Below, in pieces: positions 9,925 through 15,786 of a stretch of DNA of 64,000 bases. The notes under the pieces are model-generated. The model was not told the DNA's origin and searched no databases. It saw nothing but the letters and a program-made list of their open reading frames with translations. The DNA is from Clostridia bacterium. GTDB taxonomy: Bacteria > Bacillota > Clostridia > JAAYHZ01. Positions within the stretch are counted from its first letter, which is position 1. The number at the start of each line of letters is the position of its first letter. Both the position numbers and the translations under genes were made by a program. Location of the stretch: positions 448,001-512,000 of the forward strand of contig JBMNIH010000004.1 in assembly GCA_050950825.1 (NCBI GenBank), in the 5' to 3' direction.

Positions 9925-12708
9925 GAGCTTCCCGCAAAGAGGCAGTTTTATGAATGGATGGGAGTGAGCGAAAACGATTTTTCCGACCTTATCGTAAAGG
10001 GCACCTATGAAAACGGCAAGGTGGTCAACCCCATGCCGCTTACGGCAAGCAATTTTACAATCGACAGGCGCCCCGGGGAAGACCGCAAGGTTACCATAGC
10101 GGTGGACAATGAAAAGGTTTCGTTCACGATTGATATAGAACCTCGAAAGGTGGTAGCACTGGAACTCCTTTCACCGCCTGATGTAATCAATTATTATGTG
10201 GGAGAATCCTTCAACAAAATAGGCATGGCAGTAAGATACCGTTTCAACTCAGGGGAAACGGTAGATATGATGGACCTCTACCTGGATGACAGCTGTTTTA
10301 GCGGCTTTGACAGCAGGACGCCGGTAATGTGCCAGATAGTTACCTACAGGGTGGATGACGCATCCGTAAGCTTTACTGTCAATGTCCAGGAGTATAAGCT
10401 GATGGGCTTGAGGATCGACAGATTACCCTACAGGGAATGGTTTTACCAGTATGAAGAGCTCAGTTTGGAGGGTATGAAGATTACCGGCCTCATGCCCTAT
10501 GGCGAGGAAAGAGATATGGAGTATGTCCTTTGGGAAATTTCCGGCTTTGACAGCCGCAAGCCGGTACAGGACCAGGAGGTGACCATTCGGATAGAGGACC
10601 GGACCGTCTCCTTCACAGTGGATATTCTGCCCCCGGTGGAAGTCAAAAGCCTGACGTTCAGGGATACGATTAAAGAAGAGTATCTGCTGGGCGAGTCTTT
10701 GGATATGATGTATCATGACTTGGGCGCCACATATACCGGATATGCTTACAACCCTGTCACTAATAATGTGGAACTGAGGGAATTTGGCGTCAATATTTGG
10801 CCTACGGCGGAAGAAATCAGCGGCTTTGACAGCAGCCAGCCTCAAGACAACCAGGTATTGTCCTTTACCTTCGGAGGATTGACAGCGACCCAAACAATAG
10901 ATATCGTGGAGCCGGAGCTTTTAAGCCTCCGTGTCATACCCTCCAAGCCCACCTATTATACGGGGGATGTGCTGAAACCCGAGGAGCTGACGGTACTTTG
11001 TACCTATGAAAACGGATATATACGCACCATGCCGGCCGGTTCCTATCTCATCAGCGGATTTGACAGCACAAAGCCTGTTCAGGATCAGAGGGTTACGGTA
11101 TCTTACAAGGGTCAATCGGATTCCTTCTTCATACAGGTACTGCCCCTTGAGTTGAAGAGCATCAGCGTCAATCCGGGGCTGACGAATTATTACCTTGGGG
11201 AACAGTTTAATCGATCGATGCTGAGGGTAAGCGCCCACTACAACAGTGGTGCAATAAAAGCAGTGTCTCCCGAACTGGTGCAAATCAGCGGCTTTGACAG
11301 CAGCAGGGAAGCGACGGGGCAGGAGGTTGTCGTAAGCTATCAGGGCAAGCAGGACAGTTTCCTGGTGAATATTTTAAGCGGTACTCGCCCTGACGAGCCC
11401 GGGGAAGAGCCCGGCAACGATCCTGGAGAAGAACCCGGTGGAGAGCCCGGCGAAGAACCCGGTGACAAACCTGGCGATGAAACGGGTGATGAACCTGGTG
11501 ACGCCGAGGACACAACAACTACAACGCCTTCCGGTAGTGAAAACACCCTGTCCGTCACGCCCAGCCTGGATAAAGACACCGGAAAGGCAATCGCAGCGGT
11601 TGAAGAGACGAAACTTCAGGAAGCTTTCGACAAGCTGGATGAAGATGAAGAGGGTGTCAGGAAGATATCTATAGAAATATCCACGGTGGAAGAGGCAAAG
11701 GCTTATGTGGCGGAACTGCCATCCGGCTTCTTAACCGAAAAGGGAGCGGAAATACAGCTGGAGATAAAGACCGGTGTAGGAACGGTTACTGTTCCGGGCA
11801 ACATGCTGGCCAATATTCCGGAGACTTTTGGGAAAACAGCCGGTATCACCATCGGCCGGGGCGACAAGTCAGCCTTACCGGAGGAAGTACAGGAAGCTAT
11901 TGGCGACAGGCCTATTATCCGGCTCGCCCTGACCCTGGATGGAGAGCAAGTCAACTGGAACAACCCGGGCGCGCCGGTGACGGTGAGTATTCCTTATACA
12001 CCGACGGAGGAAGAACTTAAGAACCCCGAAAGCATTGTCATCCGGTACATTGACGGCAGCGGCAATGTAATTTCGGTGCCCAACGGGCGCTACGACCCCG
12101 AATCCGGAACCGTCACCTTCACCACCACTCATTTCAGCTATTACGCCGTAAGCTTCAAGCCGGTCAGCTTTAAGGACGTGCCGGGGGATGCGTGGTATGC
12201 GAAGGCGGTTTCCTTCATCGCTGCAAGGGAGATTACCCTCGGCACGGGAGGCGGCAATTTCAGCCCGGAAGATAAGCTCACCAGGGGACAATTCATCGTC
12301 ATGATGATGAGAGCCTATGGTATAGCCCCCGATGAAGACCCTAAGGACAACTTCAAAGATGCGGGCAACACCTGGTATACCGGGTATCTGGCTGCGGCCA
12401 AGAGGCTTGGCATATCGGCGGGCGTGGGCAACAACTTATTCGCACCGGAAAATGCCATCACCCGCCAGGAGATGTTTACCCTTTTATACAACGGGTTGAA
12501 AGTCATAGAGAAGCTACCGCGGGGCAATTCCGGTAAAACCCTTTCCGACTTCAGCGATGCCGATGAGATTGCTCCCTGGGCGATGGATGCCATGAAGCTC
12601 CTGGTGGAAACCGGCATGGTGAGTGGCAGCGGAAACAAGCTTTCACCGAAGGATACCACGACCAGGGCGCAGATGGCTCAGGTATTTTACAACCTGCTTT
12701 CAAGATAA
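9925..12708 (+). CDS. Cell-surface protein with tandem bacterial Ig-like (Big_3-type) repeats, PGEE linker and three SLH domains; 5'-truncated by the IS
   Basis: Five SGFDS repeats; SLH motifs FKDV..WY..FSP...TRGQF, TRQEM and TRAQMA; frame open back to the IS end; no signal peptide left. Confidence 0.85.
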   Translation, partial: ELPAKRQFYEWMGVSENDFSDLIVKGTYENGKVVNPMPLTASNFTIDRRPGEDRKVTIAVDNEKVSFTIDIEPRKVVALELLSPPDVINYYVGESFNKIGMAVRYRFNSGETVDMMDLYLDDSCFSGFDSRTPVMCQIVTYRVDDASVSFTVNVQEYKLMGLRIDRLPYREWFYQYEELSLEGMKITGLMPYGEERDMEYVLWEISGFDSRKPVQDQEVTIRIEDRTVSFTVDILPPVEVKSLTFRDTIKEEYLLGESLDMMYHDLGATYTGYAYNPVTNNVELREFGVNIWPTAEEISGFDSSQPQDNQVLSFTFGGLTATQTIDIVEPELLSLRVIPSKPTYYTGDVLKPEELTVLCTYENGYIRTMPAGSYLISGFDSTKPVQDQRVTVSYKGQSDSFFIQVLPLELKSISVNPGLTNYYLGEQFNRSMLRVSAHYNSGAIKAVSPELVQISGFDSSREATGQEVVVSYQGKQDSFLVNILSGTRPDEPGEEPGNDPGEEPGGEPGEEPGDKPGDETGDEPGDAEDTTTTTPSGSENTLSVTPSLDKDTGKAIAAVEETKLQEAFDKLDEDEEGVRKISIEISTVEEAKAYVAELPSGFLTEKGAEIQLEIKTGVGTVTVPGNMLANIPETFGKTAGITIGRGDKSALPEEVQEAIGDRPIIRLALTLDGEQVNWNNPGAPVTVSIPYTPTEEELKNPESIVIRYIDGSGNVISVPNGRYDPESGTVTFTTTHFSYYAVSFKPVSFKDVPGDAWYAKAVSFIAAREITLGTGGGNFSPEDKLTRGQFIVMMMRAYGIAPDEDPKDNFKDAGNTWYTGYLAAAKRLGISAGVGNNLFAPENAITRQEMFTLLYNGLKVIEKLPRGNSGKTLSDFSDADEIAPWAMDAMKLLVETGMVSGSGNKLSPKDTTTRAQMAQVFYNLLSR
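11388..11508 (+). repeat. Degenerate 12-nt coding tandem repeat (P-G-E/D-E linker)
   Basis: Translation PDEPGEEPGNDPGEEPGGEPGEEPGDKPGDETGDEPGD. Confidence 0.8.
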
Positions 12709-13121: not shown

Positions 13122-13389
13122 TCCGGATTATATAACCAATAGGCACCGTAATCTGCTAAAAAAAGCCGGGTTACCCCCTATCAGATTCCACGACCTGAGA
13201 CATTCCTGCGTAGGTTTGATAATGGCAAATGAAGTACCTATGGAGCGTATCAGAGATTGGGTTGGTCATAGCGACATCCGGACAACGGTTAACATCTATG
13301 GGCATCCGGAATACCAATCAAAGAAAATGACAGCAAAGATTATCGAAAAGTCTTTACCTCTTAAAAAGGTAGGAGCTGCTAATCTTTAG
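13117..13389 (+). pseudogene. Tyrosine integrase C-terminal fragment
   Basis: Manual translation PDYITNRHRNLLKKAGLPPIRFHDLRHS...VGHSDIRTTVNIYGH; adjacent to the tRNA 3' end. Confidence 0.88.
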
Positions 13390-13408
13390 AATTAACAGCT
13401 CCATGATA

Positions 13409-13496
13409 TGGCGGAGGGTTAGGGATTTGAACCCTAGATACCTTGCGGTACACTGGTTTTCGAGACCAGCTCCTTCAGCCTCTCGGACAACCCTCC
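13409..13496 (-). tRNA. tRNA-Ser(CGA)
   Basis: GGAGGGT/ACCCTCC acceptor stem, ctggt-ctCGAaa-accag anticodon arm, long variable arm, TTCAAAT T loop, encoded CCA. Confidence 0.95.
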
Positions 13497-13668
13497 AAGT
13501 TAAATTATACTCTTCCTTATTCTATTCATGCGACTTGGTCGCTTGTATATTGTACTAGAAAGAAAGCGGCTTGTAAAGCGGAAAAATGAAGAATAAATCT
13601 AAAACTCTTCGTGTATTTTCCGCTTATCGTTCGTCAATCCTTTCCTTCCTCGCTCGTAATACCCGTCG

Positions 13669-14766
13669 TTACTTTTTCGATACATATTCATTCCCTCGAA
13701 TATAAAAACGCCAAGGATAGTCCGCCGCCTCTTCCGCATAATCGATATTGATTCTTTTCGTGGTAACAATGTCCGGGGGCTTGAATTTATGGGGACGAGC
13801 AATGTAAATCTCGTCTTTCGTAAGATCCGTCCCGTTGTGTTCCTTCGTAAGCCCCAAAGCCATACACAATTTTCCGGGACCGTTGGTCAAACCGATCCTT
13901 TTTTTCTTGTCCAGTTTTTCGTAAGGCTCGCCGTAGCGGAGCAAGGACATGGTATTCAACCCCTCAACGGGTTCTACCGCACGTATCAACACGGCGGAAG
14001 GGATTCCTTCCGGACGAGTGACAATATTCAAGCAATAATACATCCCGTAAATGAGGTAAATGTAAGCACGGCCGGGAGGTCCGTACATGACCTCGGTACG
14101 GGGTGTACGCGTATCGTTGTACGTGTGGGAGCCCTTGTCCTCAATTCCGCAGTACGCCTCCGTTTCTACAATCCTTACCGTGAGACGCTCTCCGTTGTAA
14201 TTTCGAATAATGTAAGCACCTAGAAGCGCTTTTGAAAGGTGAACCGTATCGTTGTCAAAGTACAGCTCTGAAAGCTTATACACATTCGTACCGTCGCTTA
14301 AAGAAAATTTCGTTCGGACTTCTTGAAAGAACCCGGTTAAAAGCTTTCGTGATTCTTCTTCCAAAAGAGGAAAGAAGTATTGCGTTTTTCGGTTCCCGAA
14401 ATGCCGGTCCAGTAAATCCGCTTTCGTCGTAACGGCACCGGCGGTTTCGTCCGGAGCACCGAAATAAAGCTTTCCTATACGGGACTGCATGATGGCGCCG
14501 GCACACATGGGGCAAGGCTCCAATGTGACATACATCTCGCATTCATGCAAAGATCGATAGCCTAAAGCGGCGCAAGCCGCTTCAATGGCATTGATCTCTG
14601 CATGACGCACCGGATTGCCGGATTGCTCCGTTGTGTTATGGGCTCTTGCAATAATGGTGTCGTTACGGACAATAACTGCTCCTACCGGAATTTCGCCAAT
14701 GCTGTATGCTTTTTTGGCTTCCAATAGCGCTTCCGCCATATATTTTATTTCTTTGGTCATGATCAC
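13669..14766 (-). CDS. tadA: Fusion of TadA-like tRNA adenosine deaminase and AAG/MPG-type 3-methyladenine/hypoxanthine DNA glycosylase
   Basis: N-half: EIPVGAV, HAE, TLEPCPMC, FF. C-half: IVETEAY, GSH, YIYLIYGMYYCLN, VLIRA, GPGKLC, PWRFY. One uninterrupted frame. Confidence 0.88.
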   Translation of the reverse strand: MIMTKEIKYMAEALLEAKKAYSIGEIPVGAVIVRNDTIIARAHNTTEQSGNPVRHAEINAIEAACAALGYRSLHECEMYVTLEPCPMCAGAIMQSRIGKLYFGAPDETAGAVTTKADLLDRHFGNRKTQYFFPLLEEESRKLLTGFFQEVRTKFSLSDGTNVYKLSELYFDNDTVHLSKALLGAYIIRNYNGERLTVRIVETEAYCGIEDKGSHTYNDTRTPRTEVMYGPPGRAYIYLIYGMYYCLNIVTRPEGIPSAVLIRAVEPVEGLNTMSLLRYGEPYEKLDKKKRIGLTNGPGKLCMALGLTKEHNGTDLTKDEIYIARPHKFKPPDIVTTKRINIDYAEEAADYPWRFYIRGNEYVSKK

Positions 14767-14799
14767 ACGAATGTCGTTCCTTCTATCCTCACGGAATTT

Positions 14800-15786
14800 T
14801 TATCGTAAACTCGGTATGTATTTTTTCTCTCCGTCTTTTGCCGATTCGGCGGCCAAAAGCGTGGCAATAGCCGACATTCCGCCGTCCCAAGCGGGAACGG
14901 CACATTCGATTCCCTTCGTAATACAGTCTAAGAAATGGTCGACCTCCGGCCCGTAGGGATGAGAAGGTATAAACAGCTCGCTCGGCAAATCGATCCACAT
15001 GCTGCCTAAAGCATCGATGCAGATTTTTCTTTGCACCAAGGAAGCCTTTGTTCCGTAAATTTTCAGGTTATACATATCCGGACAAGGTCCGGGAGACCCG
15101 TAAAGGCAGGTCACTTTTCCTATGGCTCCGCTTTTGAATTTGTAGGTGGCGACGATGGATGTTTCTTCACGCATTTCCTTGTATGTGATGTGGTTGGAAA
15201 TGGCATTGACCTCCGTAACTTCTCCCGCATACCATCTCATAAGATCCAAAGGATGGCAGCCGCCGCCTACCATGGGAATTTCGTCGGTAACCTTCCACTT
15301 TTCCATAAAGTATTGGTATCTTAAGTCGTGAATATAGTCGGCTTCCAAATATGCGATTTCACCGAAGAACCCGGAGTCCACCAACCGTTTAATGGCGGCG
15401 TATTGTCTGACAAATCGCAAGACTTGCCCTACTTGGCTGACGAGATTCGGATGCTTTTCCGCTTCCTGAACCATCTCCAAAACGTCTTCGATCCTGTTGG
15501 CCATGGGTTTTTCCACGAAAACATGCTTGCCTTTCTTCAAAGATAAAAGAAACGGTTCTTTGTGGGCCGAATCCCCCGTGTGAATCGATACGGCATCCAG
15601 CTCCGGTATATCCAAAACGGAATAATCCGTGTAAACGGCCGCATGGAATTTTTCACCGGCGTATTTCGCTCTTTCTTGGTCAATATCGCATACGGCAATC
15701 AGTCGGCTTTTCGGATTTTTAGCATACTCCTCGCAAAAAGCCAAACCGTTATGCCCCAATCCGATTACGGCAACATTAACAGTCAT
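14800..15786 (-). CDS. Gfo/Idh/MocA-family oxidoreductase
   Basis: VIGLGHNG Rossmann motif, GKHVFVEKPM and GGGCHPLD motifs. Confidence 0.92.
   Translation of the reverse strand: MTVNVAVIGLGHNGLAFCEEYAKNPKSRLIAVCDIDQERAKYAGEKFHAAVYTDYSVLDIPELDAVSIHTGDSAHKEPFLLSLKKGKHVFVEKPMANRIEDVLEMVQEAEKHPNLVSQVGQVLRFVRQYAAIKRLVDSGFFGEIAYLEADYIHDLRYQYFMEKWKVTDEIPMVGGGCHPLDLMRWYAGEVTEVNAISNHITYKEMREETSIVATYKFKSGAIGKVTCLYGSPGPCPDMYNLKIYGTKASLVQRKICIDALGSMWIDLPSELFIPSHPYGPEVDHFLDCITKGIECAVPAWDGGMSAIATLLAAESAKDGEKKYIPSLR

Follow-up and report, generated by a model that had tools for sequence, protein, structure and literature searches.

The window analysed here is a 64,000-nucleotide (nt) stretch of genomic DNA from a Clostridia bacterium of anaerobic digesters (contig JBMNIH010000004.1; the genome is denoted G000). 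Its minus strand carries, at positions 13669–14766, a single open reading frame (ORF) of 365 codons that joins a TadA-type adenosine deaminase to an AAG/MPG-type DNA glycosylase. The frame begins with GTG at 14766 and ends with the TAA stop at 13669–13671; an in-frame ATG is located at 14760, two codons after the GTG. A putative Shine–Dalgarno-like sequence, GAAGGAA (14777–14783, minus strand), lies 10 nt 5' of the GTG, and its counterpart in G002, a genome from a second genus of the same family, is GAAGGAAA, 9 nt before the ATG of that gene. The TadA domain comprises residues 1–153 (14308–14766) and the AAG/MPG domain residues 162–365 (13672–14283), connected by the linker FSLSDGTN, residues 154–161 (14284–14307). 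In the AlphaFold2 (AF2) model the last TadA helix ends at residue 150 and the first AAG strand starts at residue 161, and the alignment with human AAG begins at V162, placing the linker at ~8–10 amino acids, in agreement with the ~10 residues of the original prediction. Pfam matches dCMP_cyt_deam_1 (PF00383) to residues 3–103 (2.2e-30) and MafB19-deam (PF14437) to residues 7–151 (1.1e-34) of the N-terminal half, and Pur_DNA_glyco (PF02245) to residues 170–359 (1.9e-66; profile positions 3–180 of 181) of the C-terminal half. The two domains and the linker account for all 365 residues, and neither Pfam nor the AF2 model reveals a nucleic-acid targeting module in the chain. The original prediction, made from the letters of the window alone, described one 365-residue frame with a complete zinc deaminase domain and a complete AAG domain; the ORF listing, Pfam, AF2 and Foldseek bear this out. 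Each catalytic motif that it named was located in the translation: HAE at residues 55–57, PCPMC at 84–88, VETEAY at 200–205, SH at 213–214, YIYLIYGMY at 235–243, CLN at 245–247 and LIRA at 260–263.

Residues 3–153 match the sequences of bacterial TadA proteins in the PDB, with E values of 1e-37 for B. subtilis TadA (7cph) and ~1e-33 for the A. aeolicus and S. aureus proteins (1wwr and 2b3j). Foldseek superposition on TadA structures yields target-normalised template modelling (TM) scores of 0.88–0.95 and root-mean-square deviations of 0.8–1.7 Å. A survey of the deaminase fold describes a TadA/Tad2 signature consisting of a glutamate before strand 1, an asparagine in strand 2, the motif EPCxMC, and extra C-terminal helices with a conserved glutamate and phenylalanine (PMC3239186, Iyer et al. 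2011). The signature is complete in the fusion protein (E25, N44, E83-PCPMC, E136, F146 and F147), and the C-terminal helix is modelled at residues 136–150. Eleven TadA residues, H55, A56, E57, E83, P84, C85, M87, C88, F146, F147 and R151, are invariant in all 55 aligned fusions. They include the HAE triad (14596–14604), which provides a zinc ligand and the catalytic glutamate, and the PCPMC segment P84–C88 (14503–14517), which is part of EPCxMC and holds two cysteine zinc ligands; the roles assigned to HAE follow in part the same source (PMC3239186).

The C-terminal half exceeds the cut-offs of all three glycosylase models: 279.5 bits against 272 for the NCBIfam equivalog NF002001, 206.7 against 116.35 for TIGR00567, and 223.3 against 27 for PF02245. 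Residues 162–363 match human AAG (3qi5) with an E value of 1.5e-41, and Foldseek aligns the domain with 1bnk, 1f4r, 1ewn and 3qi5 at E ~2e-21, target-normalised TM scores of 0.84–0.89 and 40% identity over 202–208 columns. At E203, Y205, H214, Y237, Y240, N247 and R262 the aligned residues in 3qi5 and 1f4r are identical, and we take these to be E125, Y127, H136, Y159, Y162, N169 and R182 in human numbering. E203 (14158–14160) coincides with E125 of human AAG, which is the catalytic glutamate of the TEAY motif and presumably the general base. The residues invariant in the 55 aligned fusions are E201, T202, E203, Y205, H214, Y235, Y237, Y240, N247 and R262. The B. subtilis enzyme Aag reportedly prefers hypoxanthine and ethenoadenine, a preference said to come from work by Aamodt et al. 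in 2004.

The continuity of the frame was examined by aligning Logan contigs of four sequencing runs, which are assembled contigs and not raw reads, with positions 13350–15000. Two contigs from RNA libraries (X1, 3367 nt; X2, 2053 nt) and one from a DNA run (X11, 10269 nt) span 13540–15000 or more with no differing letter and no gap, and two contigs of run X13 together cover the gene without differences; the DNA runs X11 and X13 are possibly themselves the source of the window. An indel in the linker region (14270–14320) had been named as the event that might split the frame, and the contigs of all four runs show no difference there. Among sequencing runs of biogas, digester and sludge samples, 20 listed ones, belonging to 17 studies, contain the stretch, and six of these are RNA libraries. 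The frame is also open and co-linear in G001, of the same genus (80% identity), and in G002 (73%), and four metagenomic proteins with 72–82% identity carry the intact fusion. Comparison of G000 with G001 gives dN/dS (nonsynonymous over synonymous divergence) values of 0.10 for the TadA half and 0.04 for the AAG half, with dS of 1.4–3.1; for pairs with G002 dS was returned as -1 for both halves and for the whole gene, which is read as saturation. The linker region, residues 151–166, retains 69–88% amino acid identity among the three genomes. Judged from these sequence comparisons, both halves are under purifying selection, and the low dN/dS at such dS means that the reading frame has been kept through a long divergence. 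Frameshift or misassembly is rejected by the contigs that bridge the junction, the intact frame in relatives and the purifying selection, and a natural single-chain TadA-AAG fusion is thereby confirmed. Two database proteins derive from near-identical DNA and are probably assembly artefacts. P0007 (310 residues) comes from a noisy assembly in which this sequence is translated across several frameshifts. P0008 (372 residues) is a chimera that joins the N-terminus of an M56 peptidase to the AAG half, with 100% identity over 49% of the query. A split form cannot be argued from either protein.

The AF2 model, computed with 55 fusion sequences, has a mean predicted local distance difference test score (pLDDT) of 93.6, a predicted TM score (pTM) of 0.89 and a linker pLDDT of 94–95, which implies a fixed inter-domain orientation, confidently predicted for the lineage of the window protein (F1). 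A Foldseek search found no PDB chain that covers both halves, the highest query-normalised TM score being 0.50. Residues 1–156 and 161–365 were also folded as separate chains, each with a 55-row alignment, in three runs and with three controls. The median ipSAE (an interface score from predicted aligned errors) of the three runs was 0.65 compared with 0.00 for the best control; a mark of 0.65 is reached by 58 of 80 solved complexes and by 2 of 110 mismatched pairs. At least 94% of the contacts are common to the runs, and the pLDDT of the partner is 89 or higher. The predicted interface is formed on the TadA side by helix 1 (residues 15–25), residues 47–48 and the C-terminal helix (141–156), and on the AAG side by residues 161–180, 185, 196, 267–268 and 323–330. 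The alignment used was our own and the cut lies beside the interface, such that the model is support for binding and not a demonstration of it. For a representative of a second fusion lineage, F2, AF2 returned a pLDDT of 91.3, a pTM of 0.56 and a linker pLDDT of ~70 from a shallow 20-row alignment, which is no evidence against an interface. On these models, a rigid interface would not be a common property of the independent fusions.

Within the class, the fusion profile matches end to end in all three genomes of family f1 (G000, G001 and G002), and the remaining 396 genomes scored give no such match; elsewhere among these 399, TadA and AAG match separately, and in four class relatives with strong matches to both genes, tadA and aag are on different contigs or 60 kb apart. 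Lineage F2 surfaced at ~42% identity, and with P0018, one of its members, as query, the fusions listed reached down to 46% identity. The search for proteins with both domains, proposed in the original prediction, yielded at least 74 clusters at 90% identity by BLAST classification of 383 proteins, six in F1 and 68 in F2. F2 proteins come from uncultured Clostridia and share 38–46% identity with the window protein over the whole length. Some carry automatic public names, either "tRNA adenosine(34) deaminase TadA [Clostridia bacterium]" or "DNA-3-methyladenine glycosylase", and one was named "TadA/3-methyladenine DNA glycosylase Mpg" by JGI. Other searches returned few fusions or none. The P0018 search of a 401-genome phylum sample at E ≤ 1e-65 gave no match, but it also missed G000 itself and so is no evidence of rarity. 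A metagenome scan with alignment A2, the patterns of which mostly caught stand-alone TadAs, gave no fused gene among the best 80 loci, and a genome-contig scan with alignment A1 gave none outside the own lineage among the best 80 of 599 confirmed stretches. Among the best 150 matches in a representative library, where single-domain AAGs dominate and fusions are undercounted, only P0002 and P0130 are fused.

The two lineages separate in the AAG tree. It was built from 116 domains: five of the six F1 proteins (P0002, near-identical, was dropped), 20 of the 68 F2 proteins, 33 AAGs from the examined loci, and random samples of stand-alone AAGs (18 of 111, 22 of 126 and 18 of 33). F1 groups with 20 stand-alone "long-form" clostridial AAGs in one starred clade (95), and F2 falls in a different starred clade (95) with short-form AAGs that do not have the 26-residue insert. 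A tree constrained to keep all fused rows in one clade is worse by 220.9 log-likelihood units (approximately unbiased test, p-AU 0.00018), and a single origin is rejected; the constrained group was defined by architecture, and the test was run after the tree had been seen. In the TadA tree (five F1 proteins, 19 F2 proteins and 53 of 55 locus deaminases) the fused proteins form three starred groups (99): F1, F2a near Oscillospiraceae TadAs, and F2b near a Blautia TadA. The deep branches of this tree are weak, with 11 of 74 starred, and two deaminases below 85 bits, the guanine deaminases of loci L027 and L057, were left out. The trees thus support at least two origins of the same architecture, and F2b possibly represents a third fusion event.

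The fusion is the housekeeping tadA of the genome, because it is the only strong TadA match, the genome has a sole tRNA-Arg(ACG), and the gene occupies a native site before tRNA-Ser(CGA). In G000, an assembly of 3.55 Mb and 97% completeness, the fusion scores 113 bits with the TadA model and the next two matches score 47 and 24 bits; in G001 and G002 all matches other than the fusions score at most 25 bits. No second tadA was found by this model in the three family genomes, which are 96–97% complete, so its absence is not proven. The two weaker matches in G000, a 216-residue deaminase on contig C5 (47 bits) and a dCMP deaminase on contig C10 (24 bits), were rejected as a second tadA since they are not TadA-like over the C-terminal helices. 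The former (C5:113339–113677 region; L003:1216–1866, minus strand) is a CDA-fold deaminase with a C-terminal extension, and it matches the TadA model (47 bits) and an anti-phage dCTP deaminase model (44 bits) weakly in both cases. ARAGORN identifies 53 tRNAs in G000, including one tRNA-Arg each with anticodons ACG, CCG, CCT and TCT and no GCG or TCG isoacceptor. Where neither of these exists, decoding rules require inosine at position 34 (I34) of tRNA-Arg(ACG) for reading CGU, CGC and CGA; the sole tRNA-Arg(ACG) of G000 therefore needs I34. Pur_DNA_glyco matches once in G000, in the fusion, which is then also the sole AAG. The search for a second tadA or aag, as the original prediction had suggested, accordingly found neither in this genome, and no match to endonuclease V (Endonuclease_5) was obtained in the same 97% complete assembly.

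Immediately downstream of the fusion gene lies tRNA-Ser(CGA) (13409–13496, minus strand, ARAGORN), preceded by a promoter-like site at 13577–13549 on the same strand; the scan that gave this site is no richer in promoters and terminators than shuffled sequence (3 found against a mean of 2.4, and 3 against 2.2). The same tRNA gene lies just downstream of the fusion in G002, and in G001 one gene, for glycerol-3-phosphate dehydrogenase, intervenes. It also follows directly the unfused tadA of the class relative G021, one of six unfused tadA loci examined. The adjacency to a tRNA-Ser gene noted in the original prediction thus holds for the fusions and for G021, and its description as a common clostridial context was overstated. 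The occurrence of this tRNA gene after both the fusions and the unfused G021 tadA fits capture of an aag behind tadA at its native locus, and it is proposed that the fusion formed there in an ancestor of family f1. In another class relative (G037, locus L014) tRNA-Arg(ACG), the substrate of TadA, lies at 1400–1476, directly upstream of an unfused tadA. The neighbours of the fusion are metabolic, among them a GFO/IDH/MocA oxidoreductase and a URO-D-like gene, and Pfam analysis of the neighbouring genes gave no repair, defence, toxin/immunity or targeting gene. Adjoining tRNA-Ser(CGA) on the plus strand is a 57-residue ORF (13216–13389) that contains HSDIRTTVNIYGH and has no Pfam match. It presumably resembles the C-terminal end of tyrosine recombinases and may be what is left of an integrase at a tRNA integration site. 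The plus strand also encodes, at 9958–12708, a 916-residue surface protein that has three Big_3 domains, a spacer rich in Pro, Glu and Gly, and three SLH domains at its C-terminus.

AAG domains were also encountered in other arrangements. P0210 and P0384–P0414, of ~570–620 residues, combine an N-terminal AAG with a TIM-barrel adenosine/adenine deaminase (PF00962); this family accounts for 32 of the 120 clusters listed, at 48–84% identity, and its named members are from metagenome-assembled genomes (MAGs) of Ktedonobacteraceae. Its deaminase half scores 241.8 bits with TIGR01430 (cut-off 216.55). In two Bacteroidota MAG loci (L027:3923–4930 and L057:1647–2657) a guanine deaminase gene of 157–158 codons is followed after 12–21 nt, on the same strand, by a short-form aag. 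The guanine deaminase matches B. subtilis GuaD (1wkq) at 4.8e-44, and the AAGs of both loci group close to the AAG halves found in F2; these are two of 43 stand-alone AAG loci, from a search biased towards such pairs. The remaining AAG fusions comprise GNAT acetyltransferase with AAG (five clusters), a PF02572 domain with AAG, a tandem double AAG, and AAG with an Exo_endo_phos nuclease, a plausible two-step base-excision-repair fusion; the proteins with other architectures are P0349, P0353, P0354, P0356, P0363, P0376, P0175 and P0126.

Taken together, the window protein is probably one bifunctional housekeeping enzyme, as far as sequence and models tell, with TadA acting on tRNA-Arg(ACG) and AAG acting on damaged purines in DNA. 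The N-terminal domain would be the housekeeping TadA, making I34 from A34 in the sole tRNA-Arg(ACG). The C-terminal domain would be the sole AAG glycosylase, with which base excision repair would begin at hypoxanthine and alkylated purines in DNA. A "long-form" clostridial aag may have been captured behind tadA, upstream of tRNA-Ser(CGA), with loss of the stop codon, and the fusion would then have been kept by purifying selection with both active sites intact. Each domain would act on its own usual substrate. The benefit would lie in the obligatory co-expression of an adenine-deaminating enzyme with a remover of deaminated adenine from DNA, and in F1 the predicted fixed packing of both domains may add to it.

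Several points weigh against this view. The best NCBIfam deaminase model for the N-terminal half is TadA (NF008113), and the score of 111.1 bits is below its cut-off of 150; the same model is also under its cut-off in six of 12 control genomes in which it matches. The RNA-library contigs contain the whole gene, which establishes presence and not a transcript, since DNA carry-over is possible. That the full-length protein would accumulate rather than be cleaved is likewise a prediction. The co-expression benefit is an inference, and AAG is also fused to the GNAT acetyltransferase, the PF02572 domain and Exo_endo_phos; with partners as unrelated as these, some of the AAG fusions may have arisen by chance and be neutral. 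On the other side, the repeated and independent joining of AAG to adenine deaminases suggests some functional link.

One form of such a link, the clean-up of off-target DNA deamination put forward in the original prediction, would have AAG tethered to TadA to remove deoxyinosine arising from collateral deamination by TadA of adenines in transiently single-stranded DNA; the fusion would then serve as a built-in proofreader and be more than two enzymes expressed together. The TadA-AAG architecture arose independently at least twice, the TadA tree hinting at F2b as a third event; AAG is joined in reversed order to the unrelated TIM-barrel deaminase in the 32 of 120 listed clusters, and it directly follows a guanine deaminase gene in the two Bacteroidota loci. 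With no endonuclease V found in G000, AAG would be the main route of hypoxanthine repair, and a fixed packing is predicted for the two domains in F1 (pTM 0.89; split-chain ipSAE 0.65). Against this stand the fusions of AAG to non-deaminase partners, the F2 representative (pTM 0.56 and linker pLDDT ~70 with 20 rows), in which no fixed interface common to both lineages is seen, and the origin of the split-chain result in our own alignment with a cut adjoining the interface. The TadA domain gives no sign of adaptation to DNA at the one position checked. The residue aligned with D108 of E. coli TadA is aspartate in 20 of 24 fused rows (F1 and F2a) and asparagine in the four F2b rows, and asparagine also occurs in three of 53 stand-alone TadAs, so that it is not fusion-specific. 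The domain displays the ordinary family signature, as given in PMC3239186, and wild-type TadA, according to PMC10188366, cannot process DNA, with no natural deoxyadenosine deaminase known. Protection of DNA from TadA itself thus appears unlikely as the reason for the fusion. A broader proposal is also doubtful, if slightly less so: that purine deaminases in general, wild-type TadA included, burden DNA or the deoxynucleoside triphosphate (dNTP) pool, that the burden is countered by obligate coupling to a hypoxanthine-excising glycosylase, and that the rigid F1 enzyme is a natural forerunner of TadA-MPG editors. The recurrent and independent wiring of AAG to unrelated or distant purine deaminases would, in that case, mean a real deamination burden on DNA or the dNTP pool.

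It is highly improbable that the real single frame gives rise to two separate proteins, by internal initiation near V162 or by proteolysis in the linker, such that only the shared transcription matters. Stand-alone AAGs start at about this residue, and the V162 codon is an in-frame GTG (14283) in G000 and G001, which the original prediction had marked as a possible sign of split genes. This sign did not hold up: the codon is GTA in G002, and no Shine–Dalgarno-like or GGAGG-like site precedes it in any of the three genomes. A crude scan gave no promoter-like site inside the fusion gene. The linker is short and conserved, with pLDDT of 94–95 in a packed two-domain model, and the frame was kept through dS of 1.4–3.1 between G000 and G001 and in the independent lineage of 68 clusters. 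The original prediction also raised a coupled system that takes A through I to an abasic site in DNA or RNA. A programmed editing or mutator system of this kind, acting in sequence on the same adenine, for example in phage DNA, would be a natural counterpart of the engineered adenine transversion editors, and it is scarcely credible here: the domain logic, one domain making the base that the other removes, and the existence of engineered fusions of adenine base editors (ABE) with MPG (AYBE and others) speak for it, but no targeting module and no toxin-immunity or defence gene lies nearby, the genome needs a TadA and has this protein as its sole one, the gene sits at the native tadA site, the protein shows strong purifying selection and an ordinary TadA signature, and wild-type TadA is reported (PMC10188366) to be inactive on DNA.

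Adenine base editors all descend from TadA, and to turn them to transversions engineers add a glycosylase, AAG/MPG. A TadA-AAG chain that is natural and conserved and has evolved more than once supplies compact domain pairs that fit each other and come ready-made with their linkers, to which the F1 lineage adds a predicted fixed inter-domain geometry. It also makes a question testable, namely whether wild-type tRNA deaminases threaten the genome enough to select for a tethered repair enzyme; if they do not, the protein is a clean Rosetta-stone fusion of two housekeeping enzymes. For annotation, public names such as "TadA" or "3-methyladenine glycosylase" lose the other half of the protein. The full-text literature searched, which lacks most subscription journals, contains no description of a natural TadA-AAG fusion, and the accessible parts of the deaminase-fold survey (PMC3239186) do not mention methylpurine or AAG. 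The statement in the original prediction that no such natural fusion had been described agrees with the lack of a paper, while "unknown" is too strong, as at least 74 clusters are public under automatic names. Both domain families are well known.

Compared with bacterial TadA proteins (7cph, 2b3j and E. coli 1z3a), the fusion shares a full-length match, HAE, EPCPMC and the C-terminal helix with the conserved glutamate and phenylalanine. It differs by a C-terminal AAG of 205 residues, predicted to pack on helix 1 and the C-terminal helix, whereas the described TadAs stand alone with 150–180 residues. Compared with AAG/MPG enzymes (human 1f4r and 3qi5; B. subtilis Aag), the catalytic and base-pocket residues are the same and the domain clusters with the clostridial "long-form" AAGs, but TadA is fused at its N-terminus; excision of hypoxanthine and alkylpurines is predicted. 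Lineage F2 (P0018 and 67 further clusters) has the same domain order and the same invariant catalytic residues. Its linker is ~10–15 residues long, its AAG is short-form without the 26-residue insert, and the TadA half of P0018 passes the NCBIfam cut-off with 154.8 bits. The AAG-PF00962 fusions (P0210 family) likewise join AAG covalently to an adenine-deaminating enzyme, yet AAG comes first and the deaminase is an unrelated TIM barrel that acts on the free nucleoside or base. The engineered editors AYBE, AXBE and AKBE also carry a TadA-derived deaminase and MPG/AAG in one chain, the product of one being the substrate of the other. They use a laboratory-evolved DNA-active TadA, an engineered MPG and a Cas9 nickase for targeting, whereas the natural protein has a deaminase that resembles the wild-type tRNA enzyme and has no domain for targeting. 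The likeness to the engineered editors is one of architecture and not of demonstrated mechanism.

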